A DNA stretch of 64,000 nt from Candidatus Heimdallarchaeota archaeon (GCA_030149205.1 JASBSB010000001.1:134357-198356), one strand, 5' to 3'; shown: positions 1-54,189, counted from the stretch's first letter. Notes: a model not told the origin generated them from the letters alone. Translations and numbers: made by a program.

Positions 1-552
1 TCAATAGTAGATTCTTATCAACAAAAAGCTGCGAAATTACCACTCCCTAAAATTCTGCTCAAGTTAATCAGTTTACTGATAGAGGGAGTACAAGCTAAGA
101 TAAAGATTCTATAAATTATAATTGTAAAATCATATTTGCTCTAATGTCGATTTTTGATTTTAAATTTGTTCATGAAAGGTATTGTCCATTGTAACCAGAA
201 CATCCCAATGAATTTGGGATTAAAATGAAAGAAATAGTTATTGATCGTAAAAAGAGAAGAGAAGAGTTGAAAACCAATATGGGTAGTTATCTAATTTAGT
301 GGTTTAGGTAGTTTACTTTACTAAATTAATACAATATTACAGAAGATTACAAAGATTAGATGTTTTAATTGCAAATATCATAAAAAACATTTCATCTTAG
401 TAAATTTTTTAGTTTGTACTAAAGCAGAGTATTATTTCACAAAAAACAATCTAAGTTTGTTAGAACAGAAGATAAACAACCATTTTAAGGAAAAATATAT
501 GCAAAAAGAAATTTAAGTTCGGGTTAATTCTTTTCAATGACCTAATATAATT

Positions 553-1386
553 TCAAGTGTCAAACTCTAATAAATCTATAAAGTCACACAATTTACAAAA
601 TTGACATACCTTAGATGTGAAATCTTGTTCAGGTAACTTTTTTATATTATTTAATTGTTGTGATTTTTCGTATAAATTAGAAATCTCTTGCAATAATCCC
701 CCAATCGTTTTCTGGTCAATTTTTTGAATTTGATCAAATTTTGGTTTACTATACCAAAGTTCAAGATTTATTTGCTGGTCTGGAAAAGAACTGTATAATA
801 TTTCACCATAAATTTTTATTTGATTCTCATCTTCTAGTTTTGGAGTACCCGTTTTGTATTCAATTATTCGTAATCCACCTGTTTCAGAAAATGCTACCAA
901 GTCAATCTTACCACGTATTTGAAAATTGTGGTTAATTCTATTGATAACAGTAAATTCATCTTGAATTACAAGTGATGTTATCTCATTATTATTAATTGTA
1001 ACCAAACTTTCTGCCATAAGAGCAAGATTATGAAGTTGACTTGTAATTATATCAAAACTATTTGAAAATTCTTGGCGATGGTATTTCCATGGACCTGTAT
1101 TATTCATCCATATTTTTTTTATTGAATCTAATTCAATTTCCATTGATAATAATATTGCATCCTTTATATTCTTACTTTTACGGTGATAAAAAAATTCAAC
1201 ATTACTAAAATTTCTTAGGAATACTCTCTGTAAAATTAAATGTAAAAAATTTCCCGCGTATACAAATTTGTTAGGTGTAAATGGTATTTTTATCTCCTGT
1301 TGAGCATATAATACCTGTAACATTGTTCTTCTTTTACAATTAAATTCATTTACACTTGTAACTCCTAATCTTATTGATTTATTCAT
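553..1386 (-). CDS. Cas4/RecB-like PD-(D/E)XK nuclease with a predicted Fe-S cluster. It is the last gene of the Argonaute operon.
   Basis: Nuclease motifs are visible in the translation. Motif II is GKIDLVAF, motif III is IIEYKTG (E-x-K), and the QxxxY motif is QIKIYGEILY. There is one N-terminal Cys (NEFNCKRR) and a C-terminal CQFCKLC triad, the 1+3 cysteine pattern of Cas4/AddB-type nucleases. Its stop-start region overlaps the upstream gene by 8 nt. Confidence 0.6.
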   Translation of the reverse strand: MNKSIRLGVTSVNEFNCKRRTMLQVLYAQQEIKIPFTPNKFVYAGNFLHLILQRVFLRNFSNVEFFYHRKSKNIKDAILLSMEIELDSIKKIWMNNTGPWKYHRQEFSNSFDIITSQLHNLALMAESLVTINNNEITSLVIQDEFTVINRINHNFQIRGKIDLVAFSETGGLRIIEYKTGTPKLEDENQIKIYGEILYSSFPDQQINLELWYSKPKFDQIQKIDQKTIGGLLQEISNLYEKSQQLNNIKKLPEQDFTSKVCQFCKLCDFIDLLEFDT

Positions 1387-3157
1387 TTAATGTCCTCCTA
1401 TTTTCCAATAAAAATTCTGAAGAATAGTGCATAGCTAATCCAAGGATAAATGGAAATTTCGGTTTTGATAAACTGTATGGGTTTATGAAGGTTTGATAAA
1501 ATACATCTTGAAGTATTTCTTGGATATCATGCAATCCTTTGATTTTTTCAATAAATAATGGTTTGGGAATACCTTCAAATAAATCATTAGGATATCCATT
1601 TGTCATAATTAATGACTTGTTATCATTAATACTAACTGATAAGCCATCAATTGCTTTAGAAGTATTTTCGATCTGTCCATAAAGGATTGAGTGTGATGAA
1701 TTAACTAAAACTAAACAAAAATTATAATGGGAAATTTTATCAATTAAAGGTAATAACTGTCTGTCTGAAATTTGAATTAAGAAGTGGTCTGAATCACTAA
1801 AATTAATCAATTTTTGTAAGAAATCATTAATTTTAACTTTTTCATCGATATTTTTGTCTCTATCATTATAAAAAATATCATGTGAAATGTTAATATTTCC
1901 CTTATTAGAACTAACACCTGATAATATCATCCATTCTCCTGCATAATATGGTGTTATATGAAGAGCGATTATATTCTGATGATACTTCATTGATACATTT
2001 TGATATAATTTTCGAGTGTATCTAAATCTAATATTCAACCAAATTAGTTTTACAATTTTTCCCCAATCATCTTCTAATATTGTTGAAAATTTAATGATTT
2101 TATTTGGAATTACAATTTTTTCTTTAGTTTTATTGTATACATATCCTGAACCCTTTATTCTATCGTCGATACATATTATAGCTGCATCTGCCTCAAATTT
2201 ATGAAGCTTGGAGACATAATAGCTTTGAATTGTAATATTTAATCCTGTAACTTCTGCAAAATATGAAATAAAATTCTGAATCTTAATGGGGGTATTATCT
2301 GTCACAGATTTATCAATTAAAAATAATATATTGCTAATAAATGGATCAAATGAAATGTTATCCTCTAAAATATCTACTAATGGAGTAGTGTTTAAAGTTT
2401 CAATAGTGTTTGAATTGATTTTTATCGACGGACTATTTATTAAATCCCCTTTCAGATTCTCAATAACAGATAATCTTACATTTCCGATTTGATTTGTATT
2501 TATTACTTTGATTATTTTAAGGAATCTTTGTTCCACTGATTCAAAATTTCGATGTAATTGTAATACTTCTTTTTCTATTACACCAGGTATTAATTTATTA
2601 GATGTTAAGTTAAATGAATTTTCAGATATTTCATGTCTGGGATCATAAAAAACCATAACCTTATCATCTCGCATCTCATGGCATTCAAACCTTTCAGCTT
2701 GAAAAATCGAATACGTGAATGTTTCATTAAACTGTTCAACAGTTTTTTCTACGATAGGATTTATTCTTTGACTAGCTACTCCTTTAGATTTTCCAATAAA
2801 TGACAGTACCTCACTGGGTCTATAATAACCTTTGTTTGAAAATGTAATATATAAGGCTGTCAATACGAATATGTCAAGATTTTGTATTTCTTTCTTTTCA
2901 TTAATCTCTGTAGTACAGATTGAAACAGGGATTGTAGCAATCTCCAAATGTGAAGGTGGTTTTTGTGCGAAAAGGTAATATGAATCCTTTACATATATAA
3001 TTGTAAATGGAACATCTGATAAAAAATCACCATTTTTTAATGCAAAGGTCAGAAAGCTAAATTCATAGTTGTACTGCATGGAAACTTTGTACATTTTTAA
3101 TACAGCTGTATCAATTTGTGCTATCCAACCAAGTATTTTGCATATCATATAAACCAC
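1379..3157 (-). CDS. Hypothetical 592-aa protein, the fourth gene of the Argonaute operon. No recognised domain.
   Basis: It is a long uninterrupted ORF. It overlaps the upstream Argonaute gene by 13 nt and the downstream nuclease gene by 8 nt, which suggests translational coupling. I found no Walker A motif or other signature. The C-terminal approximately 100 aa (KPKFPFILGLAMHYSS) faintly recalls a PIWI C-terminus, but this is not convincing. Confidence 0.5.
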   Translation of the reverse strand: MVYMICKILGWIAQIDTAVLKMYKVSMQYNYEFSFLTFALKNGDFLSDVPFTIIYVKDSYYLFAQKPPSHLEIATIPVSICTTEINEKKEIQNLDIFVLTALYITFSNKGYYRPSEVLSFIGKSKGVASQRINPIVEKTVEQFNETFTYSIFQAERFECHEMRDDKVMVFYDPRHEISENSFNLTSNKLIPGVIEKEVLQLHRNFESVEQRFLKIIKVINTNQIGNVRLSVIENLKGDLINSPSIKINSNTIETLNTTPLVDILEDNISFDPFISNILFLIDKSVTDNTPIKIQNFISYFAEVTGLNITIQSYYVSKLHKFEADAAIICIDDRIKGSGYVYNKTKEKIVIPNKIIKFSTILEDDWGKIVKLIWLNIRFRYTRKLYQNVSMKYHQNIIALHITPYYAGEWMILSGVSSNKGNINISHDIFYNDRDKNIDEKVKINDFLQKLINFSDSDHFLIQISDRQLLPLIDKISHYNFCLVLVNSSHSILYGQIENTSKAIDGLSVSINDNKSLIMTNGYPNDLFEGIPKPLFIEKIKGLHDIQEILQDVFYQTFINPYSLSKPKFPFILGLAMHYSSEFLLENRRTLNE

Positions 3158-5346
3158 GGCTTTTTAAAATGGAAATTCGCCATATCTTTAGGAATTTTGC
3201 CCATACCTCTACTTGATGAATGAATTGGAACTGGGAGCTTAGTTTCAATTCTATCCCATCCAGAATAACAATGGCATAAATCAAAAATCTCATAAAGAAG
3301 TTTTTCAAATCTCTCCTCATCACATTTAATATTTCTTAATACAATTGGATTTTGAGTCCCAACATTTCCTTGTGTTGAAATTAAACCAACTTCAGTCTTA
3401 GATATCCAATAAAAAGTCCCAATATGTGGCCGAAATATTCTATTTTTTTCATTCTTTGAATAAATACGAAGTGGAGACGAAGAAATTACCTCAACAATTG
3501 AATGTTTTAAATTAAGAATATTAAGGCTATGTTCAATATCTTTTAATTCTCTATCATAAAATTTTCCATTCTTTATTAAAACTACTTCATCATTATTTTT
3601 AGTGAGTAACTTAAAAGCACTTTCAAAATTTTGTTGACGATTTTCGACGTTATCAGAAATGTAGTATCCTCCACTAAATCTACCCGAATTATAATATGAA
3701 TTTAGTAACCCCCGATATTTAGTTGCATCTAGTGAGATGTTTTGAGATTGCAAACCAATATATTTTACAAAACCATTTTCATTAACATTCAGTAACCATG
3801 AATGTAGACCTAACTTTGCAATTATACCCAAAAATATATTCCGAAAATACCCATTTTGTCTTGATTCAATTTTATCCTTCAGAACATTAAAATTAATTCC
3901 CTGATGAGGATATTCATTTTTTATTAATTCACCAGATACTAATTCTTTGAATTCACTATCTACACTATCATTATCAGAATGAACCACTATGATACAATTG
4001 TTGTTATTTACAAATTTATCCATATATTCTGATAAGTCTCCCTTTTTTTCGAGAAGTTTTATTTCATCAAACTCAATTTCTGTACTAAGAAATTGTTGAA
4101 GAATGATTATTTCTTTTGTTTCTTTTAGAAATGGCTTTTTTATTAATCCTAATTGATATTCATTATACTCTCGATATAATAAAATCGATATTTTTAACTT
4201 TTCGGGACCCTTATCAAATATCCCATATTTTTGAATTTCTAATGCTGGGTAATCAGTCCTATGTGAATTACCAATAATGTAATTATTCAAATCTAATAGT
4301 CCAGAGTTACATGAGTTCCAAGATTGAAAGTTTCTAATTGGATTTAGAGTTATTGAACCCACGGTTAAATTACCTATAAAACGCATATAATTCTGTGATC
4401 GTTTAAATCTAATCGGAGGGTCAGGCCTAATTTGTTTCATCAGGGCACCTCTATCATGATAATCCAAATGTGAAAATGTTGGTAATTCTCGAATTCTTTC
4501 TAAAGGGTATGAATAATACTCATCATTATCATTTTTATAGAATGATAACGCAATAGGTGGTTCATCTTGTATAAATTCACCAAGCACGGGTGCTCTAGGA
4601 CAAATGAATTTTTGTTTGTGAAACTCAATTATATCTAAATTATCAATTATTACCTCTGAAGGTTTCTTATTTACAATTTTTTTCAATTTCACAGTCTTCC
4701 CAGTTCCAGCATATCTACAGTTTGAGAAAGGATCCTGTTTTTCTGGACATTGAATAATTGGACAAGTATCTACATAATAATTTTTCGGATTTATTTCTAT
4801 ACTAGAATATGAAAGTTTCTCTCTCAATGATACGGATGAATGAAATTTATATTTGAGATCAACTATTACTCCAACTTCACCATTTTTAAGCAAAATTGGA
4901 GCATATTGAAATCCTGGGAAAACATCAATTTTTCCAAAACCCTCGATGGTCTCAGGGCTAGAAACCTCAAATATTGAATTGTAAGTTTCTTGTATCTTCC
5001 ATAATTTATTACTATGTCGTAAATTGACAGCAATAGCATCTCCAATAATTCTTTTCAATAGATCTAAATCATCATCATTTTGGGCTGAAACTAATCTACT
5101 AGTAGGAGGAAATAAATTTACTGCCAAATCTTTTTCGAAATCATCTTCAAGTAATTCGGTTGAAATTATCTTATCTCCAAATTGAATTATAATTTTACGT
5201 CGATTATCTGGAACTTTCCTAAGATTAAGTAATACATCACCAAGTTTTCGAAAGTTTATTTCTTCTTTTTTCCTATATTCAAAGACTGTAACTTTATCTT
5301 TGAATGGTGTTTTTTCAAATTTTAAAATATTAGTTATTATTTCCAT
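3145..5346 (-). CDS. Prokaryotic Argonaute (pAgo), a PIWI-domain protein that is predicted catalytically inactive (long-B-like).
   Basis: The C-terminal third aligns motif by motif to the PIWI domain of Argonautes. NIFLGIIAKLGLHSWLL matches NLCLKINVKLGGVNNIL. KYIGLQSQN matches FLGADVTH. VVLIKNGKF matches IIFYRDGVS. SIVEVISSSPLRIY matches ITFIVVQKRHHTRLF. PHIGTFYWIS matches IPAGTTVDTKI. The terminal KLPVPIHSS matches IPAPAYYAH. The DEDX catalytic positions are replaced (GLQSQ and KNG), so it is predicted slicer-dead. At 733 aa it has the size of a long pAgo. Confidence 0.6.
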   Translation of the reverse strand: MEIITNILKFEKTPFKDKVTVFEYRKKEEINFRKLGDVLLNLRKVPDNRRKIIIQFGDKIISTELLEDDFEKDLAVNLFPPTSRLVSAQNDDDLDLLKRIIGDAIAVNLRHSNKLWKIQETYNSIFEVSSPETIEGFGKIDVFPGFQYAPILLKNGEVGVIVDLKYKFHSSVSLREKLSYSSIEINPKNYYVDTCPIIQCPEKQDPFSNCRYAGTGKTVKLKKIVNKKPSEVIIDNLDIIEFHKQKFICPRAPVLGEFIQDEPPIALSFYKNDNDEYYSYPLERIRELPTFSHLDYHDRGALMKQIRPDPPIRFKRSQNYMRFIGNLTVGSITLNPIRNFQSWNSCNSGLLDLNNYIIGNSHRTDYPALEIQKYGIFDKGPEKLKISILLYREYNEYQLGLIKKPFLKETKEIIILQQFLSTEIEFDEIKLLEKKGDLSEYMDKFVNNNNCIIVVHSDNDSVDSEFKELVSGELIKNEYPHQGINFNVLKDKIESRQNGYFRNIFLGIIAKLGLHSWLLNVNENGFVKYIGLQSQNISLDATKYRGLLNSYYNSGRFSGGYYISDNVENRQQNFESAFKLLTKNNDEVVLIKNGKFYDRELKDIEHSLNILNLKHSIVEVISSSPLRIYSKNEKNRIFRPHIGTFYWISKTEVGLISTQGNVGTQNPIVLRNIKCDEERFEKLLYEIFDLCHCYSGWDRIETKLPVPIHSSSRGMGKIPKDMANFHFKKPWFI

Positions 5347-5348
5347 AT

Positions 5349-6035
5349 TTATCTCTCTTTGTTTTTAAGTAACTCAAATGAACTTATCACCGCAAGGTCT
5401 GTGTTAACCGTTTTTGTTAGTATTTTCTTACAAGCTGAATGCATTATGAAAAATCCTGTACCTAACGCAGTTTTCATTAACTCGTTTTTTGCGGATTGCA
5501 ATAAAATATCATTAACTATTATTTCAGGATGAACTGATGTTGAAAAATATACTTGGATTGTAAATGAACTCGTATCATCCAAAAACAAAAAAGAATTTAT
5601 TCCATCTTTTTTCCAATTACACTTCAGTGAAAAAAGATCTTCAATTCTTGAATTAAACCCGTCTAATCTATTAAATTCTTCGCTAATTTCTTTGATAGGT
5701 AGTATAATTGAAGATTTTAACAAATAATTCCCCATAACTCTCAGGTGCCAATTAGAATTAAATTTATCTACGTCTAATACTTGTATAGTTTGATTGGATT
5801 GATACAATCCTGTATCTTCTTCATAAGAAAGCAGATTATCTTTAGTTAATTGGCTAAGTATCATTTCAACTTCTACATTTGGTATATGATCAAAATATAG
5901 ATTACTTCTCCCAGAACTCATCCAAATATGTTTCACTATATTTGATTTTTTTGCACTACCATAATCTCGCAGGAAATCAAGAATTAATTTTTTAATTGCT
6001 TTCTCCATTGAATCTTTAGGTTTCATATCAATCAC
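5349..6035 (-). CDS. Hypothetical 228-aa protein with a putative N-terminal winged-helix domain, the second gene of the Argonaute operon.
   Basis: Its start overlaps the upstream gene by 4 nt, and it ends 2 nt before the Argonaute start. The N-terminal approximately 70 aa (EKAIKKLILDFLRDYGSAKKSNIVKHIW...ILSQLTKDNLLSYEE) has a wHTH-like pattern. The rest is unassigned. Confidence 0.45.
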   Translation of the reverse strand: MIDMKPKDSMEKAIKKLILDFLRDYGSAKKSNIVKHIWMSSGRSNLYFDHIPNVEVEMILSQLTKDNLLSYEEDTGLYQSNQTIQVLDVDKFNSNWHLRVMGNYLLKSSIILPIKEISEEFNRLDGFNSRIEDLFSLKCNWKKDGINSFLFLDDTSSFTIQVYFSTSVHPEIIVNDILLQSAKNELMKTALGTGFFIMHSACKKILTKTVNTDLAVISSFELLKNKER

Positions 6036-7072
6036 CTGACTATCTCCTTAATCTTTGACTTTAGTTCTTCAGAATTATCTACAATTACAACATTCTTAAA
6101 ATTGTAGCGTATTTCATCATAATATTGATTAGAATTGTTTAAAATAATAAAATGGGTAATATCAATAAACGAAGTAAAAGCAAAATTAATTTCATCTACC
6201 TCTTCAGAAGGTAAATGCATATCTACAATCCATAATCCAATTTTTAGGTTATTCAATTCAATGTAAATGGGAATTGTTATACTCTCATTCTGACTATTTG
6301 TAATCTTTATTTCCTTACGGATAAAAATTGGATTGAATTCTTGAATTACATTGAGGAAGCTTTGACCAATTTTCTCCTGTAAATACTTGAAATCATCACT
6401 GAAAGCCGGAATTCCAGATATTTCCTCAAAATCTTTTGCTGTGTATTTTGTTCTCATTTGAGAGCTTGATTTTGTAATTATTTGTTCTATTATATCTTGA
6501 AATATTTGTTTAGGATTACGAATTAGAATATTATATTTTGATAGCTCTTCAAGACATTTACTCTTAATATTATCGAATGGACTTGATGGATGATTGGGGG
6601 CAAAATAATTCCAAACAAATTCTATTTTTTTGAATACTTCAATTTTTTTCTGATCTGTGAATTTTCCTTTGAAAAGAGAATTTATTCTACCTTTATCAGC
6701 ATTTGAAATTTCTAAATTGTTCTGAAGGTTTTGTTGAATTTGCAGTAGTTCAGTAATTTCTGCATTCCAACCCGATTGAGTTGTAAATCGAAATTTAATT
6801 TCTTTTCCAGATAAATTTTTTTCATCTTCCTGTATGAACTTTGTTAAAATTGGTATCAAACTTGATTTATTCCAGACACTATGTTCTTTTTTCTTTACCT
6901 GTTCAAATATAAAGTACCCAGTATATTCTATGTTAATATCTTCTAATTCATCATCCTTTGATTCAAATTCAATTGATAAAATCTGATCTCCTTTAATGAA
7001 TTCAATGACTCTTAGTACTCCAACCATATTTTGGTAATTAATACCATAGTTTGTATCAATTCCACTTGGCAA
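6032..7072 (-). CDS. Hypothetical 346-aa protein, the first gene of the Argonaute operon, with a TTG start.
   Basis: It is a long ORF. The start codon at 7070..7072 is TTG and there is no in-frame ATG upstream. It overlaps the next gene by 4 nt. No recognisable motif. A weak PD-(D/E)XK-like D...EQVK patch lies near the N-terminus. Confidence 0.45.
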   Translation of the reverse strand: MPSGIDTNYGINYQNMVGVLRVIEFIKGDQILSIEFESKDDELEDINIEYTGYFIFEQVKKKEHSVWNKSSLIPILTKFIQEDEKNLSGKEIKFRFTTQSGWNAEITELLQIQQNLQNNLEISNADKGRINSLFKGKFTDQKKIEVFKKIEFVWNYFAPNHPSSPFDNIKSKCLEELSKYNILIRNPKQIFQDIIEQIITKSSSQMRTKYTAKDFEEISGIPAFSDDFKYLQEKIGQSFLNVIQEFNPIFIRKEIKITNSQNESITIPIYIELNNLKIGLWIVDMHLPSEEVDEINFAFTSFIDITHFIILNNSNQYYDEIRYNFKNVVIVDNSEELKSKIKEIVR

Positions 7073-7090
7073 TATTTTAAATCTAGTTTT

Positions 7091-7102
7091 CTTTATAATA
7101 AT
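7091..7102 (-). promoter_or_regulatory. Putative TATA box for the pAgo operon, implying a leaderless transcript.
   Basis: The minus strand reads ...gaattattataaagaaaactagatttaaaatatt-TTG. The TTATTATAAAG element lies about 25-30 nt upstream of the first codon. Confidence 0.3.
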
Positions 7103-7430
7103 TCAGAGATATTGTAATAATCAAAATGAAAGTTTTAAAAATTTAAATATACAATATGTGATATCAAAAAAATTTTATTGCAAAGACTTAAAATAAATGA
7201 GAACTCGAAGCTGGATAAAGACCTATAACCGTGATTTCCTTGAAATATCTCGGATATAATCAAGAAAATAAATTAGTAAATCTAAATCTTGATTGAAATA
7301 TTCTTCGTCTACTAATTATTCTTATTATATTGTTATCTTATAAGAGTTGGAAGTACACAGATATTCGACTTGCTAAGTCAGTATACAATATATATTCAAC
7401 CAGTATCTTTCAACTATGACTACCAATTCC

Positions 7431-7454: not shown

Positions 7455-8597
7455 TTAATCCAGGTGTTTATTGTTTTTCTTAATATGCTGCAATGTATCT
7501 TCATTGTGAGCTGCCAAATACTCAAAAGAATTGTCATACATAGTTTGATTTAATCTATGAATAATGTCACTTTTTACGAAAATACTATATTCAACAGGAG
7601 TTTTGTTATCAATTGTAGATAAATTATTTGTTATGTATTTCATAAAATTTTCCAGATTTAACAATCCTATCGCAATTGTGGGATTAATTGGTATGTAATA
7701 TTCTAACATAACTGATACTCCATTTACTATTAACTCTGCTATAATCAATGGATTGTCTGAAGTAATTAATTCTACAGGGTGGTCTTGAGGATTTAGTCCA
7801 GATAGATTAATTATGATGATCGGCCTGAGTTCAGTATGTTTTAGTGGTTTATCAACTGTTTCATCAGGCAATTTTTGTAAAACTTCTCTGATTTTATTTT
7901 CAATTTCGATTTGACTATCTTTATGATCTAAAGATTTCTTTATTCCGATACTAATATTTTTACTTATTAAGGATATCATACCTTGTAAGTCGTTTTTTAA
8001 AAAATACCCCTGTGCTTTTTGTAAAAACACCTCGTCATATTTAATATTACTTTGATATAGAATCTCCTGTGTTTCAGTGCTAATAAAACTAAAATCCAAT
8101 ATCTTACTAAATTTCATGTAATTTCTAAATGAAGGTGTTCTAAACGTTAGATGATTAATAAAATCACATAAAATTTCGAAATTTGATTGCAAATGCATAG
8201 CATCTATGAAAGTCTCCGCAAATTTTTTTATATCTAATGATTTTTTGAATATGTTATCTCTATTACTAGGGTTGTAAATTTTTATTTTCTCAGTTTGAAA
8301 ATTTAATTTTTCTAATCCAGTAAAGAACTTAGCGACTTTATCCTCAGCTTCACTCATCAAATCGTCAATCAGTTCCTCTAAAAACCTTGGAGAATAAAAA
8401 CTTTGATTAATCTTTTTTTTGTCAATATCCCCAGTCTTTTTGTTCAACCTAAATACTCTTTTCTTTTTGTTATCTTTTTCAAAATCCTCCTCAATAACAA
8501 AATTTCGTAGAAACCACTGAGGAATATAATGTTGTTTTCTGCCTGACATGAACATAACTGTGGAATAATTGTATATTATAGTATTTGAACGAGACAT
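7455..8597 (-). CDS. DUF4238-family protein, a candidate stand-alone defence gene.
   Basis: The N-terminal motif GRKQHYIPQWFLRNF is the hallmark HY(I/V)PQ(F/W)(Y/F)L+xF signature of DUF4238. It is a single gene with its own oligo-T terminator. Confidence 0.55.
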   Translation of the reverse strand: MSRSNTIIYNYSTVMFMSGRKQHYIPQWFLRNFVIEEDFEKDNKKKRVFRLNKKTGDIDKKKINQSFYSPRFLEELIDDLMSEAEDKVAKFFTGLEKLNFQTEKIKIYNPSNRDNIFKKSLDIKKFAETFIDAMHLQSNFEILCDFINHLTFRTPSFRNYMKFSKILDFSFISTETQEILYQSNIKYDEVFLQKAQGYFLKNDLQGMISLISKNISIGIKKSLDHKDSQIEIENKIREVLQKLPDETVDKPLKHTELRPIIIINLSGLNPQDHPVELITSDNPLIIAELIVNGVSVMLEYYIPINPTIAIGLLNLENFMKYITNNLSTIDNKTPVEYSIFVKSDIIHRLNQTMYDNSFEYLAAHNEDTLQHIKKNNKHLD

Positions 8598-8704: not shown

Positions 8705-9319
8705 CTACGAATCGAAACCTTCAATTTCTTCAAGATCGTCATAGGTCTGTCTAACTGCTTGATGAACTTGATCTTCGGTCTTTGCACCAGTACACACAAG
8801 ATTCCCACTTTGGAAGAGCAACAATACTGTTTTAGGTTCTTTTAATCGATAGATAAGTCCAGGAAACTGCTCAGGTTCATACATTGATTGTTCTAACCAC
8901 ATGTTTGCGGCTTCAAGGTTAATCACCCTATTGTTGAAATTCCCAGAGGCAACAATATTTTGGACGATAATTTCAGGAGTCTCTTCAATGGTTGTGCCCA
9001 CAGTTCTTAGGATATCAATCATCTGATAAACACCTTGATGAACCATTTCCTCAGATTTTGCACCCGTTATAACCAGTTTACCACTTGAAAACACAAGGGA
9101 TGAGATTTTAGGCTTTTTAGTTTTTAAGATCAGACCAGGAAACTGTTCTGGGTTATAGCTTACTTCTAATTCATCATCATCAATTAACTGTTGAAAGATA
9201 CTGACTAAATCTATGTTTGTGAACAGGTTAACTGAAGCTACACAGTTTTGGATTATAATTTTGAAATCTAATCCGTCGTCTTTGTTTTTTTCTCTTGAGG
9301 GAAGTGTTTCTTGACTCAT
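8705..9319 (-). CDS. tbp: TATA-box binding protein.
   Basis: Two direct repeats are present (…LVITGAKSEEMVHQGVYQ… and …LVCTGAKTEDQVHQAVRQ…). The protein is 204 aa with an acidic C-tail. Confidence 0.9.
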   Translation of the reverse strand: MSQETLPSREKNKDDGLDFKIIIQNCVASVNLFTNIDLVSIFQQLIDDDELEVSYNPEQFPGLILKTKKPKISSLVFSSGKLVITGAKSEEMVHQGVYQMIDILRTVGTTIEETPEIIVQNIVASGNFNNRVINLEAANMWLEQSMYEPEQFPGLIYRLKEPKTVLLLFQSGNLVCTGAKTEDQVHQAVRQTYDDLEEIEGFDS

Positions 9320-40828: not shown

Positions 40829-42430
40829 TTGGAAACTGATGAAAAGGTCACACATTGGACCGATAAGATAATTGATGAAGCTACGACAAAATTTGGTGGG
40901 AAGCATGTGATTATGGGAGGGTGGTCTCCCTCCGGAATTTTTCATATTGGAAATTCTAGAGAGATAATCACAGCAAATGCAATTAATAGAAAATTAAAGG
41001 ATTTAGGAATAACCTCAAATTTTGTTTTTGTAATTGACGATTTTGATGGACTAGAAAAAATTCCATCAACCCTAAAAAAATATAAAGGAAGCTTAAAAGA
41101 ATATATTGGTCATCCCTTATGTAGGGTTCCTGATCCAACTAAGCAATTTGCCTCATATAGTGAATTGTTTGCAAGTAGTCTCAAAGCAGCATGTAAAGAA
41201 TGGAACATTGATGTAGAGTTTTTAAATGCCTCTGACCTTTACAAGGAAGGAAAATATGATAAATTTTACAGTCTATATTTACAGAACTACCAGAAAGTTC
41301 AGGAGATCTTAAAGGATGTATCCGGGTCTGAATTATCCTCTTTTCTGATTGTCATTTGTCCGAACTGTGGTTCAAATAAGTCAACTGAGGTTCTCAAGAT
41401 GGATGATACCAAGATAAGTATAAAATGCCAAACATCAGGTCAATACAAAGGGTGTAACACCACGAGTGAAGTTTCCGTTGAGAGTCACGAGTGGAAATTG
41501 AAATGGAGATTAGATTGGCCTGCTAGACAAACATTTTGTGGTGTGACTATTGAACCTGCAGGTAAAGACCACTCTGTAGAAGGTGGATCCATAGATACCT
41601 CAATAGCCATCCATCGAGAAATATTAAACCATCAACCACCAGTCATGCCAAGGTATGGCTTCATTACTATTAACGGGAAAAAAATGAGTGGTAGCTCAGG
41701 GTTAGGATTACCAGTGGAAAAATTAAGTGAGATTGTTGATCCTAGCAGTTATTTATACCTGGTCTACAAAACTAACTTGACTAGAGATGTTGATTTTGAT
41801 TATAAGAGCATGAACTTACTAAATCTGATTGATGAATACATAGGTATCTGGAGGGATGAACTCTTTGGGGACAAATATGAAGGAACTACTCAACAGGTTA
41901 CTAAACTAAAGGCTGCGTTTTTGTTAACTAAAACCCCTTACCATGAGAAAAATAACCCATTATACATTAAAATGACTGAATTGTTGTTGTTGTACCAAAT
42001 TAGCTTGGAAAATTGGGATAGACTTCTAGATAAGCTAAAAAGCTTAGGAAAGTTAGAAGAGGATATTTCTCTGGAAGAGCTTTCTCTAAGACTTAAAAGA
42101 GCAATGAATTGGTTAAATACATATGGGCCAGATAACCTTAAATTTAAAATAAATGAAATTCCACCTGAAGGGGTCAACAAATATTGGACTAAGACTTACA
42201 AAGACATCTGGTTAGAGACTCTTAATACCCTTGATAAGAACAGTACCAAGGATGATATCTCAACTATATTGAGAGCAAAAGCAAACGAAAAACAGGTCCA
42301 ACCAAAGGAGTTGTTCAAACCCTTCTATCAACTGATTATCAGTAAAGACCGTGGCCCTAATGCTTCTCAATTGATTGTGTCATTGGGTTCTGAAACAGTC
42401 CTTAAGTTAATTTCTAAAATCGAAGTCTAA
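40829..42430 (+). CDS. lysK: Lysine--tRNA ligase, class I (archaeal LysRS-I).
   Basis: The HIGH motif is HIGNSRE. The KMSKS-like motif is KMSGSSG. A zinc-binding Cys cluster (CPNCGSNK...C) is present. The protein is 533 aa. Confidence 0.85.
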   Translation: METDEKVTHWTDKIIDEATTKFGGKHVIMGGWSPSGIFHIGNSREIITANAINRKLKDLGITSNFVFVIDDFDGLEKIPSTLKKYKGSLKEYIGHPLCRVPDPTKQFASYSELFASSLKAACKEWNIDVEFLNASDLYKEGKYDKFYSLYLQNYQKVQEILKDVSGSELSSFLIVICPNCGSNKSTEVLKMDDTKISIKCQTSGQYKGCNTTSEVSVESHEWKLKWRLDWPARQTFCGVTIEPAGKDHSVEGGSIDTSIAIHREILNHQPPVMPRYGFITINGKKMSGSSGLGLPVEKLSEIVDPSSYLYLVYKTNLTRDVDFDYKSMNLLNLIDEYIGIWRDELFGDKYEGTTQQVTKLKAAFLLTKTPYHEKNNPLYIKMTELLLLYQISLENWDRLLDKLKSLGKLEEDISLEELSLRLKRAMNWLNTYGPDNLKFKINEIPPEGVNKYWTKTYKDIWLETLNTLDKNSTKDDISTILRAKANEKQVQPKELFKPFYQLIISKDRGPNASQLIVSLGSETVLKLISKIEV

Positions 42431-46756: not shown

Positions 46757-48385
46757 ATGAGTTTAACAGGACAACCAGTAATCATACTCAGAGAAGGCAC
46801 AACCAGAACAAAAGGAAAAGATGCTTTAAGAAACAATATTCAAGCTGCAAAAGTCATTGCAGAAGCTGTAAGATCTGCCCTAGGTCCAAAAGGTATGGAT
46901 AAGATGTTAGTTGATGGGTTTGGAGATGTTGTCATCACAAATGATGGTGCAACAATACTCAAAGAAATTGACGTTCAACATCCTGGGGCCAAGTTTGTTG
47001 TAGAACTTGCAAAAACACAGGATCAAGAGGTGGGTGATGGAACAACAAGTGTCGTTGTCCTCGCCGGTGAATTATTGAAGAAAAGTGAAGACCTTCTTGA
47101 TCAAAACATTCACCCAACAGTTATAGTTGAAGGATACAGACTTGCGAGAGAAAAGTCTCTGAACATTTTGAAGGAAAATTCCATCAAGGTGGATGTAAAT
47201 GACAGAAAACAATTAATTAATATCGCAAAAACATCAATGTCATCAAAGATAGTTTCTAATCAAAGTGACTTTCTTGCAGATTTAGTTGTAGACGCTATTC
47301 TTTCAGTTGCTGAGAAAAAGGAAGATGGGACATACACTGTAGATTTAGACAAAGTCGTGAAGGTTAAAAAAGTTGGTGAGAATTTAGAGAAATCAGAACT
47401 GGTTAAAGGATTAGTGCTTGATAAAGAGGGAGTTCACCCTGATATGCCTAACTATGTGAAGAATGCAAAAATTCTTGTGGTTAATTCTGCCTTAGAAATC
47501 ACTAAAACTGAATTTGATGCCAAGCTAACAATTTCTACTCCTGAAGAAGTTAAAAGCTTCTTGAAACGAGAAAAAGAGATGTTAAGAGAGATGGCTGATA
47601 AAGTTATTAACTCAGGAGCTAATGTTATCTTTACCCAAAAAGGGATTGATGATAATGTTCAACATTACCTTGCGGAGAAAAACATTCTTGCAGTAAGAAG
47701 GGTTAAGAAATCAGATATTTCAAGAATTTCTGAAATTAGTGGAGCCACAATTGTTACAAACATTAATGACATTGAAAAGTCTTACTTAGGTTCTGCTGGT
47801 TTAATTGAACAGGTTCCAATTGGTGGAGATGAGGTCATGGTATTAAGAGAAGCACCTCATGGTTCCGTAGTAACCCTTCTGATCAGAGGAAGTACAGAAT
47901 TCGTGCTTGATGAATATGAGAGATCAATCCATGATGCACTATCTGTAGTTCGAAACATTGTTGAGGATCAAGAACTTGTGTCCGGAGGAGGTGCAGTTGA
48001 ACTCCTTCTATCAAGAAAATTAAATGAGTTTGCAGATACTCAATCACCAAAAGTACAACTTGCAATTAGAGCATTTTCTCAGGCGTTACTGGCCATACCA
48101 AAAGCATTATCAGAAAATGCTGGTTTAGACCCCATTGAAATCATTGGTGAAATGAACAAAAAATTTGCCGAAGATAAAACCTCATTTGGTATCAATCCAT
48201 ATACAGGGAAAATAGATGATATGGCTGTTTTAGGTGTCTTAGAACCACTGAGGGTTAAATACCAAGCAATCTCTTCCGCTTCTGAAGCGGCTTCCATTTT
48301 GCTCAGAATTGACGACGTCGTTTCTGCAAAAGACCTTGGAGGATCTCCAGCCCCACCAGGTGGAGATATGGGAATGGACTATTAG
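46757..48385 (+). CDS. ths: Thermosome subunit (group II chaperonin).
   Basis: The sequences [18 protein letters not shown] and GDGTTS are present, and the C-terminal GGM-like tail is GGDMGMDY. There is a GGAGG Shine-Dalgarno 8 nt upstream. The local GC content is high. Confidence 0.9.
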
Positions 48386-51211: not shown

Positions 51212-52645
51212 TTAACGGCTGTTTCGACCATCTCTGCCTTTTTTTAACCTGCGTGAGTGGAGTAAGGACTTTAAATCTCTTGGTTTTTCTCTCTCTTCTT
51301 TGAGATTTTTAATTCTACGTTGGTTAAGATGTTCCTCCCAGAATTTCTTCCTCTCTTGAAAATTCATCCTAGACATATCATCAGGTTCAACTTTGTTTCC
51401 TTGAATTATGTTTCTTTTAAACCGTTTTTCCAAACTTTGACTTCCCTTAGAACTGGTTTCAGAACCCGTTTCAGAACTCGCAGCGGAACTAGTGGAAGAA
51501 GAAATATCAACCCTTGAAATTCTGTTTTCCCATAATTTCTTTCTCTCTTCAAATTGTTCCTTAAAATTTTTTAATTCATTTAACCTACTTGACTTTTTAG
51601 AGGTTACCTCAGTCTTTTGATTTCGAACACCTATTCTCGAAGGTGATCGGGGAGTAACAGAAATAGGTTCAGCCATTACATCCCCAATTTTTTGATAAAC
51701 CCTATGACTACCAGATATTGTTTTAAGAGTGTTTTTCCAACTTCCAAAAAGAGTTTCAGTTCTCCCAATGATTAAGAACCCACCAGGGTTCAATGATTCT
51801 ACAAATTTCTCAATTATCCTCCTCTGTTCCTGCTTATCAATATAAATTAAAACATTTCTGCAGAAAATTGCATCAAATCCCTTTGGATAGGTATCTTTAT
51901 TGAGATCGTGTAAAGAGAAGTTTACTCTATTACGAATTTCCTTATTTACCTTGTAATACCCTTCCCCTGTAAGTTTAAAATATTTTGTGGCTTCAATCTT
52001 ACGAGTCTCACTTAAATAAGAGCCATCGTAAGTCGCATGTCGAGCAATTTCGAGTAAATCTGGATTGACGTCTGTGGCTAAAATTCTCAACCTCAGGTCA
52101 TTTGTTCTTAATTTGTCTTCGAATATCATTGAGATCGTATAAGGTTCTGCTCCCACTGCGCACCCTGCTGACCAAATTTTGATTTCACTCCCTTTCCTCG
52201 AACCATTGGAAGTGATCTGTGGTACAATATGATCTCTCACAAGTTCAAATGTATCTCTGTTTCTGAAGAATCGAGTTACATTGATTGACAATGACTCCTT
52301 GATTTTCGAAATTTCACCAAAATTTCTTTTGATATAGGCCAAATACTCAGAATAAGAACTCATGTTTAACCTATTCATTCTCATCCTTATCCTACGAGTG
52401 ATATATCGCTCTTTGTAAGCTGAGGTTTCGATTCCTTGCTTTTTAAGATGAGATAGCAAATAAGGCAGGTTGGTCTCATCTAGTTTACGCTCTTTTGTAT
52501 TAATTGAAAATAGCCGTTCAGAAACAGTTGAATTACCCTTTCGAGGCGATTTACTTGAAGTTTTGTTCAAATAAGATTCTGGACCTAATCCCCGACCGAG
52601 GGTTGCTCCTTTTGCAACTTTTGGTTTATCTTTACCTGAGACCAC
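51212..52645 (-). CDS. CheR-type protein-glutamate O-methyltransferase homolog with basic N- and C-terminal extensions.
   Basis: The CheR N-domain is present (LPYLLSHLKKQGIETSAYKERYITRRIRMRM...TRFFRNRDTF). The SAM-binding core is present (IKIWSAGCAVGAEPYTISM; FDAIFCRNVLIYIDKQEQRRII...LNPGGFLIIGRTE). The C-terminus is serine/lysine-rich and about 170 aa long. Confidence 0.65.
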   Translation of the reverse strand: MVSGKDKPKVAKGATLGRGLGPESYLNKTSSKSPRKGNSTVSERLFSINTKERKLDETNLPYLLSHLKKQGIETSAYKERYITRRIRMRMNRLNMSSYSEYLAYIKRNFGEISKIKESLSINVTRFFRNRDTFELVRDHIVPQITSNGSRKGSEIKIWSAGCAVGAEPYTISMIFEDKLRTNDLRLRILATDVNPDLLEIARHATYDGSYLSETRKIEATKYFKLTGEGYYKVNKEIRNRVNFSLHDLNKDTYPKGFDAIFCRNVLIYIDKQEQRRIIEKFVESLNPGGFLIIGRTETLFGSWKNTLKTISGSHRVYQKIGDVMAEPISVTPRSPSRIGVRNQKTEVTSKKSSRLNELKNFKEQFEERKKLWENRISRVDISSSTSSAASSETGSETSSKGSQSLEKRFKRNIIQGNKVEPDDMSRMNFQERKKFWEEHLNQRRIKNLKEEREKPRDLKSLLHSRRLKKGRDGRNSR

Positions 52646-52680
52646 AATAATAATAAGATTTACTCAAATAAAACTCTTAT

Positions 52681-54189
52681 CTATCTTTTTAACTTTCTAA
52701 TAATTACCAAAATTAGTGTGAAAATAACGAATGAGATAATCGTAAAGGGAACAGGAGTAGTTTTGCTGTCAAACTGAGCGGACAAAATCCCTGAATTTTT
52801 GATTTGTCTAACCCATAGCCCATTAGAGTTTTGACTATCTAGCAAGGTAGTTGTTAATCTTTGAATTGTATTGTTGACTATCCCCGATAGTTGGAGAATC
52901 CGCAAAGTTTCATAATTTTTAGCCAAAACCTGCAATACCCCAGCTATACCTTCAGAATAGGAAAGATCGAAAAATCGATCTTCTTTATTAGACGAGTGGA
53001 TCAGATAATAATTCCAACTACCTGTTTGGACGTTGGTTACATTCACAATTTGTGAGTTAAGAAAGTCAAGAAAGGCAGATTTTAGAGATGTCTGTTGAGT
53101 CCGAGTAAGTTTATTATAACTACTCAAAAGGAAATCAAAAACACCAAGGACACCTGAACTTAGGGAGTTTAGTTGAATTGAACTGTTCGGTTGCACGTGA
53201 AAATAGGGGGAGACAGAGGAAAGTTTATTCATCACTAATTGGAGTGGTGTTTGTATCTCTTTTGAATAATCAGTTTGTGAGCTTCCTAAAGATTCAAGGA
53301 TACCAGAGACACCTGAATTAAGATTGTAATTAAGCTCAGTTGTATCGTTTTCCGTATTCCAAAGACCATTGGGTAGCTGCCTAGAGACCAAGTAGGAATA
53401 CACCTTTTTGGAAAAATCTAATATTGAGGAATTTTGACTTATTCCTGCAAAATTTTGAAGTGATAGGGCTATTCCTGCCATTCCCTTCCCATATCCGTAT
53501 ATTTCAACTCCAGCAAACCCCTTTTCAAATGGGTACCAAGGTATTGATATCCCCGATTGGTGTTTGGTTGAAATTGAATACAACCAATTCACTACTTTTT
53601 CTCCCCATTTAAGATAGGTTTGATTCTTTGTTAATTTATACAAGGAACCAACTGCTCCTAAGATTCCTGCTGAGCCGAATTCAAGTCCTGACAGAGGGAT
53701 GCCAAATGCTTTGCTCACATTTGAATCCGCATATCCCCAGAAAGCCTTGTTTCCATCCAAAATTGAGCGGGTAAATAATAAATTGAGGGCGGACTGAGCC
53801 TGGTCAAACCAAATCCTATTCTTTGAAAAATTGTAATAGGACAACAACGAATTAATTATTCCTGACTGACCATATTTATCACCAACATAAATTACTGAAT
53901 AATTATCAACCGTTTTTCGCCAAAGGGAGAGGGGGGTCCCATATAGGTCATTTATACGCTCATTTAAAAGGCCCTGATAAAATTGACTTAAGCTCCTGTT
54001 TACTTCACCCTGTAACTTAACTGGGAGAATAGGGTAGACTTTAATCAAAGTTTTTGCAATACCAGCCCCACCATATTCAAATCCCAGGTATGTTGAATAG
54101 TCTTGTTCTGGAAGCGGTGGTGCTTGAGAATGAACTGTCAGAGGCAAAATAAGAATTAATACTATAAATAACCCGGAAAATAACCTCAC
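52681..54189 (-). CDS. Secreted, C-terminally anchored protein with LanC-like (alpha/alpha-toroid) GxxG repeats.
   Basis: It has a signal peptide. There are about 7 spaced G-x-(A/S)G(I/V) repeats (GGAGIA, GQSGII, GSAGILGAVGSL, GMAGIALSL, SGVSGILESL, EGIAGVLQVL). A C-terminal TM segment is followed by a basic tail. The Zn-ligand C/H motifs of true LanC proteins are absent. Confidence 0.35.
   Translation of the reverse strand: MRLFSGLFIVLILILPLTVHSQAPPLPEQDYSTYLGFEYGGAGIAKTLIKVYPILPVKLQGEVNRSLSQFYQGLLNERINDLYGTPLSLWRKTVDNYSVIYVGDKYGQSGIINSLLSYYNFSKNRIWFDQAQSALNLLFTRSILDGNKAFWGYADSNVSKAFGIPLSGLEFGSAGILGAVGSLYKLTKNQTYLKWGEKVVNWLYSISTKHQSGISIPWYPFEKGFAGVEIYGYGKGMAGIALSLQNFAGISQNSSILDFSKKVYSYLVSRQLPNGLWNTENDTTELNYNLNSGVSGILESLGSSQTDYSKEIQTPLQLVMNKLSSVSPYFHVQPNSSIQLNSLSSGVLGVFDFLLSSYNKLTRTQQTSLKSAFLDFLNSQIVNVTNVQTGSWNYYLIHSSNKEDRFFDLSYSEGIAGVLQVLAKNYETLRILQLSGIVNNTIQRLTTTLLDSQNSNGLWVRQIKNSGILSAQFDSKTTPVPFTIISFVIFTLILVIIRKLKR

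Follow-up and report, generated by a model that had tools for sequence, protein, structure and literature searches.

What might an archaeon do with a prokaryotic Argonaute (pAgo) that has lost its slicer residues and is encoded together with four further proteins? This question is raised by a five-gene block on the minus strand of a 64,000-nucleotide stretch of DNA from Candidatus Heimdallarchaeota archaeon (GCA_030149205.1 JASBSB010000001.1:134357-198356; the whole stretch is referred to as the window), which a preliminary description had put forward as a candidate undescribed pAgo defence system. By gathering related loci and comparing the five proteins, termed A to E from upstream to downstream, with profile and structure collections, we arrived at the reading that the block is a mobile, nucleic-acid-guided archaeal defence module, in which a conserved B-C-D-E core with a two-Argonaute sensor and an ACE-like guide processor is combined with an exchangeable effector at position 1; we give this reading a probability of about 0.62. 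It is built upon what was observed, namely the identities of the proteins and the conservation of their residues, together with co-occurrence, co-evolution and the swapping of effectors.

Listing of the open reading frames (ORFs) returned the same five packed minus-strand genes as the preliminary description (346, 228, 733, 592 and 277 amino acids), with a 4-nt overlap between A and B, a 2-nt gap between B and C, a 13-nt overlap between C and D and an 8-nt overlap between D and E. For D, the ATG at 3148 is a more probable start than the GTG; orthologs of D and the public gene call use this ATG (589 amino acids), leaving a 4-nt ATGA overlap with C. The TATA box previously noted before the first gene is present as a TATA-like TATTATAAA, 20-28 nt upstream of the TTG start of A, and its position fits a leaderless archaeal transcript, but at 27% GC such a motif is indistinguishable from chance. 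The features of the locus are as follows.

6032-7072, minus strand: gene A (346 amino acids, TTG start), predicted position-1 effector with a Cap4-type PD-(D/E)xK nuclease domain and a C-terminal adaptor domain
6473-7072, minus strand: nuclease domain of A, residues 1-200 (Pfam match of residues 3-202 to profile positions 2-200 of 200)
6035-6310, minus strand: C-terminal adaptor domain of A, residues ~255-346, common by profile to the caspase-type effector of locus L013
5349-6035, minus strand: gene B (228 amino acids; possibly 225 from an ATG), conserved small partner with no recognisable fold
3145-5346, minus strand: gene C (733 amino acids), predicted full-length long Argonaute with the slicer residues gone
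4600-4764, minus strand: four invariant cysteines of C, residues 195-249, in the PAZ-lobe region (family alignment)
1379-3157, minus strand: gene D (592 amino acids from the GTG; 589 from the ATG at 3148), predicted second, highly diverged Argonaute paralog
1421-2191, minus strand: MID-PIWI region of D, residues 320-576 in the 589-residue numbering (hhalign span, collinear with C 449-715)
2021-2137, minus strand: MID-pocket equivalents Y338, K342, K350 and R376 of D, invariant in 10/10 orthologs
553-1386, minus strand: gene E (277 amino acids), predicted Cas4-family (ACE-like) Fe-S PD-(D/E)xK nuclease
7073-7110, minus strand: putative promoter, with the TATA-like TATTATAAA at 7100-7092, read from the sequence

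The identification of C as a slicer-dead PIWI Argonaute was borne out by its predicted fold and by its residues. C matched pAgo models of PADLOC at E-values of 1e-39 and 9e-29, and its AlphaFold2 model, made from a 26-sequence family alignment (predicted local distance difference test (pLDDT) 91.8; predicted template modelling score (pTM) 0.89), gave full-length Foldseek matches to KmAgo, CpAgo, CbAgo and TtAgo, with template modelling (TM) scores of 0.67-0.70 and E-values down to 1e-33. The model thus places C in the Argonaute/PIWI superfamily, with a predicted MID-PIWI core plus N, L1, PAZ and L2 lobes. When the family profile was searched against the PDB, CpAgo (5e-46) and CbAgo (6e-41) were followed by AaAgo, CtAgo and KmAgo, all of which are long-A pAgos, with the long-B RsAgo at 4e-12; the PADLOC Class II (long-B) models reached C at 1e-16 or weaker, versus 1e-39 for another model, and CtAgo (9IAD) was the best match in a single-sequence search of the PDB. 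By profile affinity, C is nearest to the long-A pAgos among solved structures.

Judged by its residues, C is catalytically dead. Q533, N593 and S712 stand in place of the catalytic D, D and D/H, leaving no DEDX tetrad, and none of 11 orthologs has Asp at either of the first two sites: 533 is occupied by Q, S, N or H, and 593 by N, H, Q, L, R or A. Q482, N503, K511 and a C-terminal W-F-I (carboxylate motif) are conserved. In MID, the near clade of C does not conserve the Tyr and the first Lys, both of which distant family members keep. Four cysteines (C195, C200, C210 and C249) are invariant in 26/26 family members, sister clade included, and in 11/11 near-clade orthologs, and form a probable site for Zn or another metal; a metal site at this position is not known to us from any characterised pAgo.

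Three partners of C had been described as being of unknown fold. This holds for B, which remained without a match, and does not hold for A, predicted to be a Cap4-type nuclease, nor for D, which by MID-PIWI homology is assigned as a second Argonaute-family protein; with A and D identifiable in this way, the system is more unusual than the preliminary description had supposed. Alignment of the D family (7 sequences) with the pAgo family by hhalign had a probability of 98.6% and an E-value of 9e-16 over 251 collinear columns in the MID-PIWI half, the D profile searched against the PDB with hmmsearch matched CtAgo best (4e-9), then KmAgo (3e-6), TtAgo (1e-3) and short pAgos (~4e-3), and single orthologs of D matched PADLOC pAgo models at up to 4e-19. 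The Argonaute identity of D surfaced only once orthologs from related loci were gathered: alone, the D protein of the window gave weak single-sequence matches to the C-terminal PIWI part (PprPIWI 1e-5, short pAgos 0.11), a two-sequence D profile was not significantly similar to a two-sequence C profile, and the same D profile found nothing in the PDB.

Within D, Y338-x3-K342 lies in the segment of the canonical MID Tyr/Lys, K350 aligns with Q482 of C and R376 with K511 of C, and among 10 orthologs of 18-50% pairwise identity, in which only 10 columns are invariant, these residues occupy four of them. Its slicer positions are variable, which, together with an N-terminal ~320 residues unrelated to known Argonaute lobes, would also suit a degenerate pseudo-Argonaute acting as a scaffold or adaptor (an equivalent of APAZ or N-L1-L2) that links C, as the sole guide and target binder, to the effector. 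Such a role would agree with the retention by C of Q482, N503, K511 and WFI in a complete, confidently modelled Argonaute fold, and short and pseudo-short pAgos as a rule form heteromeric complexes with a partner (PMC10954474; bioRxiv 10.1101/2021.12.09.471704). Nevertheless, equivalents of the MID 5'-phosphate pocket at 4/10 invariant columns are unexpected in a mere scaffold, and the clade of C has lost the corresponding Tyr and Lys; we consider the scaffold role unlikely, though an alternative to be taken seriously. A bolder and tentative proposal, less likely than not, is that the Argonaute paralogs C and D work only as a pair, in which D would hold the 5' phosphate of the guide and C, with the putative four-cysteine metal site of its PAZ lobe, would provide the 3'-end and target channel; the ACE-like nuclease would supply the guides, and recognition of the target would be passed on, through the adaptor domain, to interchangeable effectors (DNase, caspase-like protease, HD protein, phosphoesterase or membrane protein).

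The last gene had been described as a Cas4-type nuclease with an iron-sulphur (Fe-S) cysteine set, and its signature residues proved to be invariant in 9 orthologs of E (C17, H49, Q53, D162, E176, K178, Q189, Y193, C261, C264 and C267). E matched Pfam PDDEXK_1 (5e-11; 43.4 bits against a cut-off of 22) and, in PADLOC, Cas4c (2e-7) and Aga_Cas4-like_Nuc, and is assigned by these residues and matches to the Cas4 family, with a predicted PD-(D/E)xK core, a QxxxY motif and the residues of a 4-Cys Fe-S cluster. Its only PDB match was 9IAB (1e-3), which is CtACE1, the partner entry 9IAD being CtAgo (PMC12094033). ACE1, an endonuclease of single-stranded DNA, trims the small interfering DNA (siDNA) guides of its pAgo partner, and the two form a heterodimer (PMC12094033). 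An origin of E as a CRISPR Cas4, or as an offshoot of a CRISPR adaptation module, was considered and rejected: no cas genes lie nearby, and the score of E against the NCBIfam cas4 equivalog was 22.7, below the cut-off of 65, so E is not an ortholog of CRISPR Cas4.

Do these five genes belong together? An exhaustive representative search with the C family returned 65 representatives at E-values of 1e-3 or below among 1.84 billion proteins, ~20 of them full length, and neighbourhood look-ups together with a metagenome scan gave 12 near-clade loci, which are listed here by handle with the identity of their pAgo to C and the proteins at positions 1 to 5 (lengths in amino acids).

L001, pAgo 64% identical to C: 346 / 230 / 733 / 589 / 276
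L012, pAgo 38% identical to C: 342 / 232 / 742 / 598 / 293
L004, pAgo 37% identical to C: A / B / C, truncated
P0011 contig, pAgo 33% identical to C: 355 / 227 / 744 / 604 / 273
L018, pAgo 30% identical to C: 346 / 231 / 742 / 600 / 286
L013, pAgo 30% identical to C: caspase 392 / 237 / 738 / 612 / 288
L014, pAgo 30% identical to C: ? / 235 / 748 / 657 / 257+
L020, pAgo 28% identical to C: HD 395 / truncated B / 764 / 635 / 286
L019, pAgo 28% identical to C: C / D, truncated
L015, pAgo 26% identical to C: Cap4 367+ / 234 / 745 / 630 / 290
L016, pAgo 25% identical to C: protein with two transmembrane helices 250 / 236 / 775 / 653 / 304
L021, pAgo 23% identical to C: metallophosphoesterase 443 / 238 / 737 / 624 / 299

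Gene order was kept in all 12 of these further loci, across pAgo identities of 23-64% to C, and such recurrence takes the cluster far beyond chance. Hidden Markov models of the families found C, D and E together in 10/10 loci that were long enough, including three complete loci held out of profile building (L018, L020 and L021). The junctions of called genes were ≤26 nt in every locus, the exception being B-C of L020, where B is truncated, and this recurrence of overlaps and short gaps agrees with the translationally coupled operon around a dead long pAgo that had been envisaged. Pairwise distances between the loci co-varied for C and D (r=0.91), C and E (r=0.83) and D and E (r=0.72), and the distances of B correlated with those of C, D and E at r 0.53-0.67 (closest pair excluded throughout). 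B-C-D-E is thus a conserved core that co-evolves as a unit, with an exchangeable position 1. Other searches were less productive: word-indexed searches with C, with D and with a 7-sequence alignment recovered nothing beyond the protein itself and a single ortholog, and a scan of a genome collection returned only the L001 contig.

The exchangeable gene is represented in the window by A, which matched the Pfam Cap4_nuclease domain PF14130 over its full extent (1e-9; 39.4 bits against a cut-off of 26.2), and LmuA and HamA weakly in PADLOC. The catalytic-type residues E37, D45, Q58 and K60 are kept in 5 orthologs (found in L001, L004, L012, L015 and L018), and A is assigned a Cap4-type PD-(D/E)xK nuclease domain with its motif residues intact. 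In CBASS, Lamassu and Hachiman, the Cap4-type domain is an activatable, non-specific DNase. Position 1 was a Cap4-type nuclease, confirmed by profile, in six loci, was occupied by a Peptidase_C14 caspase (1e-15) in L013, an HD protein in L020, a metallophosphoesterase in L021 and a protein with two predicted transmembrane helices in L016, and was an unannotated 355-residue protein in the P0011 contig; the gene is thereby exchanged among five enzyme types that are not related to one another. A profile made from the C-terminal ~90 residues of the Cap4-type proteins scored 16.2 bits on the C-terminus of the L013 caspase, against a maximum of 8.0 for shuffled sequences (0/300 reaching the observed score), indicating that the adaptor domain is common to the nuclease and caspase effectors.

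B sits immediately upstream of the pAgo in every locus. A winged helix-turn-helix (wHTH) had been read into this protein; no profile supports it, and it is only plausible. The partner at the same position in the sister clade (described below) carries HTH_45 (1e-4), and profile-profile comparison of B with this wHTH protein was collinear but not significant (E-value 0.013, probability 3%).

The variation at position 1, with C, D and E constant, and the known clustering of defence genes could also mean that two systems independent of each other, such as a Cap4-nuclease/B pair next to an APACE-like pAgo/D/Cas4 system, travel together in defence islands. The placement of B speaks against this: irrespective of the gene before it, B directly precedes C in all cases, the A-B and B-C junctions are overlaps or gaps of a few nt in most loci, and the distances of B correlate with those of the other core proteins. 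Furthermore, the nuclease and caspase effectors have a system-specific C-terminal domain in common, and A is without the cyclase, SAVED, LmuB or HamB partner that would make it part of a stand-alone system: no CD-NTase/SAVED, LmuB/LmuC or HamB helicase was found in the window or the 12 related loci. We regard two independent neighbouring systems as very improbable.

The setting of the block bears on mobility and on defence. Together with the upstream DUF4238 gene, the five genes form a low-GC island (~27% against ~34% in the flanks); the family is rare, and the neighbouring transposase, TnpB, DNA methyltransferase and minimal nucleotidyltransferase (MNT) genes count with the island in favour of a mobile defence function. 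No tRNA and no flanking direct repeats were found at the island borders, and no Rfam match in the window. The neighbours of the module are a transposase C-terminal fragment, an IS605 OrfB/TnpB (two ORFs), a type II DNA methyltransferase, and an MNT followed by an unannotated 263-residue protein, with the mobile and defence-type genes lying at L001 3-482, L020 7478-8946, L004 507-1367 and L016 5330-6509; the MNT and the 263-residue protein are possibly a toxin-antitoxin pair. The DUF4238 protein (380 amino acids; window 7455-8597, minus strand), which is absent from all related loci, may be separate island cargo or a defence gene. Related contexts look archaeal, with FtsZ and Rpr2 in L016 and NurA-HerA-Mre11-Rad50 by two loci.

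How does the module compare with known systems? The earlier supposition that its architecture matches no catalogued pAgo system was upheld: PADLOC gave no pAgo model at a membership-level score for any of 26 family members (best 6e-74, for proteins of ~750 amino acids), and no description of a tandem-Argonaute operon was found in the open-access PMC and bioRxiv literature, including the 2018 census, the 2009 Makarova analysis, the 2025 APACE paper and the 2026 archaeal immunity survey, though an earlier mention elsewhere is possible. The top catalogued model for C and for several orthologs of D was PADLOC PDLC02428 'PprPIWI', a name that was not traced in the open-access literature searched. 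By sequence, the closest known system is APACE1; in their logic, the long-B BPAN/BPAS/BPAM systems and the heteromers of short pAgos come closest. From each of these the module departs in defining features.

The APACE1/APACE2 systems (CtAgo/CtACE1, MaAgo/MaACE1; PMC12094033) likewise co-encode a Cas4-family Fe-S nuclease of ~277 residues with a long pAgo. CtAgo was the top PDB match of both the C sequence and the D profile, CtACE1 was the only PDB match of E, and E, which is always in the operon, carries the D-(D/E)xK motif with an N-terminal Cys and three C-terminal Cys. By analogy, guide processing by the nuclease is likely a logic common to APACE and the present module. In contrast, the APACE pAgos are active DEDD slicers, siDNA-guided and able to act alone, in two-gene bacterial operons, whereas the present module has a dead pAgo, a second Argonaute paralog, an extra small protein and a swappable effector, and all of its hosts are archaea. 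With more than two genes and a pAgo that is no active slicer, the module is not APACE.

The long-B systems BPAN (nuclease), BPAS (SIR2) and BPAM (membrane protein) (PMC10620215, PMC13535254) have an inactive full-length pAgo as sensor, with a varying co-encoded effector that may be a nuclease or membrane protein, and cause abortive infection, all as proposed for the module. They differ in comprising two genes around a long-B pAgo, without a second Argonaute, a Cas4/ACE-like gene or a B-like gene, and the C profile favours CpAgo (5e-46) over RsAgo (4e-12). With a pAgo that is not long-B and an operon that is not of two genes, the module is not BPAN, BPAS or BPAM. SPARTA/SPARSA/SPARDA, SiAgo-Aga1-Aga2 and AfAgo with its N-L1-L2 partner also have a two-polypeptide sensor containing a MID-PIWI protein, and their separate effector can be a membrane protein; their partner, however, is APAZ, N-L1-L2 or Aga1, where the present module pairs a complete long Argonaute with another Argonaute-family protein. 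PADLOC Aga and APAZ models had no match to A, B or D, and since its pAgo is full length rather than short and lacks an APAZ or Aga partner, the module is not SPARTA, SPARDA or SiAgo. Finally, A carries the same PD-(D/E)xK Cap4-type domain as Cap4 (CBASS), LmuA (Lamassu) and HamA (Hachiman), but the partner genes of those systems were not found here, and the C-terminal part of A is system-specific and common to the caspase effector.

Inactive pAgos of the long-B and short classes are known to sense the pairing of guide and target and to activate co-encoded effectors, leading to abortive infection (PMC10620215, PMC13535254, bioRxiv 10.1101/2021.12.09.471704), and the SiAgo system is a multi-gene archaeal system of which all components are required (bioRxiv 10.1101/2021.12.09.471704). 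Two precedents, the trimming of guides by ACE1 and the activation of effectors by dead pAgos, led us to propose a mechanism for the defence module; the physical contacts between its parts, the kind of guide and the phenotype are what we infer. E would make or trim small 5'-phosphorylated DNA guides from the ends of invader DNA, as ACE1 does for APACE1 pAgos. These guides would be loaded onto a C-D hetero-complex, in which D may anchor the guide 5' phosphate because the pocket of C itself has lost Tyr and Lys, with C supplying the N/PAZ lobes and the target-binding channel and B stabilising or regulating the complex. Pairing of the guide with invader nucleic acid would bring about a conformational change or oligomerisation of the complex, which would switch on the position-1 effector docked via its C-terminal adaptor domain. 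In the window, this effector would be a Cap4-like nuclease degrading DNA indiscriminately, with abortive infection or clearance of the invader as the outcome.

Several observations weigh against the reading as a guided defence module with two labour-dividing Argonautes. No relatives were found on viral contigs, plasmids or phages, so a direct link to an invader is missing. The similarity of E to ACE1 is weak (E-value 1e-3 to a single PDB match). Q482, K511 and the C-terminal carboxylate motif are retained in C, which may therefore still bind guides alone, and the role of D could be that of a regulator or a decoy instead; the N-terminal 320 residues of D had no significant match to the N/L1/PAZ/L2 region of pAgos, and the AlphaFold2 model of D, made from a 2-sequence alignment, had a pLDDT of 33. 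B had no match in Pfam, PADLOC, NCBIfam or the PDB, and 8 of its orthologs none in Pfam or PADLOC. The adaptor profile had no match in the HD, metallophosphoesterase or transmembrane effectors, which come from the most divergent loci, so that a common docking mechanism would be hypothetical for these three.

The last of these contrary points is that two loci, the P0011 contig and L018 (263-5885), adjoin a HerA-Mre11-Rad50(-NurA) end-resection operon in different relative orders, once upstream and once downstream of the module; this adjacency could be a link to the generation of guides from DNA ends, or coincidence. It also raises an accessory role in DNA repair or recombination, in which the dead Argonautes would recognise ends or gaps and the Cas4- and Cap4-like nucleases would process them together with HerA-NurA-Mre11-Rad50. 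Both nucleases, A and E, are of families of DNA enzymes, and Cas4-family nucleases are structurally related to the nuclease domains of AddAB and AdnAB (PMC12094033). A repair role is, however, hard to reconcile with the replacement of the position-1 nuclease by a caspase, HD protein, metallophosphoesterase or membrane protein, which is typical of defence effectors, and the very patchy distribution of the family (65 representatives in 1.84 billion proteins), the low-GC island with its transposase, TnpB and methyltransferase neighbours, and the eleven other loci that are not beside Mre11-Rad50 all argue against it. A repair accessory is therefore very improbable in our view, and the defence module is the reading that we retain.

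Beyond the near clade, a sister clade of ~775-residue pAgos (L005-L011) lacks A, B, D and E, and in some of its members the first catalytic Asp and the MID Tyr/Lys are still present. Its own conserved neighbourhood comprises a wHTH protein of ~250 residues directly upstream, a divergent pair of unannotated ~176- and 454-480-residue proteins and a dCTP-deaminase-like gene (L005 2784-5901; L006 3004-6128; L009 6585-12319; also L008, L010 and L011). This clade may represent a second undescribed pAgo architecture.

Downstream of E, a spacer of ~940 nt (window 1-552; L002 14795-15735) has no ORF of at least 60 amino acids, no tRNA and no Rfam match, and gave no RNA-structure signal (z -0.4); it is unusually long for such a compact genome. 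The preliminary description had also likened the genome to that of an ammonia-oxidising archaeon; the window itself is archaeal by its TBP, TFE, thermosome and class-I LysRS, and no marker genes of ammonia oxidation were found in it (20 further window proteins were annotated). The thermosome (46757-48385), TBP (8705-9319) and LysRS (40829-42430) proteins are singletons at 90% identity among 15 billion proteins, and the source genome, whose contig measures 995 kb at ~34% GC, thus comes from a poorly sampled lineage. Elsewhere in the window (51212-54189, minus strand), a CheR-type methyltransferase adjoins a LanC-like protein; the annotated window genes include none for chemotaxis.

To our knowledge, every characterised pAgo system has one Argonaute-family subunit per sensor, alone or with a partner that is not an Argonaute, and ACE guide processing is known only with active long-A slicers in bacteria. 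An operon with two Argonaute paralogs raises the question of whether Argonautes can work as hetero-oligomers that split the handling of the guide, and the paralogs are complementary, in that C has lost the 5'-end pocket residues which D conserves above all else. The module also joins two branches of pAgo biology that have been treated separately, guide processing by Cas4-family ACE nucleases and effector activation by dead pAgos, and extends the candidate pAgo effectors by a caspase-like protease, an HD protein and a metallophosphoesterase. Its occurrences are all in uncultured archaea, a group whose defence systems are under-described. If the proposed mechanism is true, its modular design of sensor, adaptor and effector could serve programmable nucleic-acid detection; and if C and D do act as an obligate, labour-dividing pair of Argonautes, theirs would be the first prokaryotic immune sensor built in this way, with a modular design like that of type III CRISPR on an Argonaute chassis.

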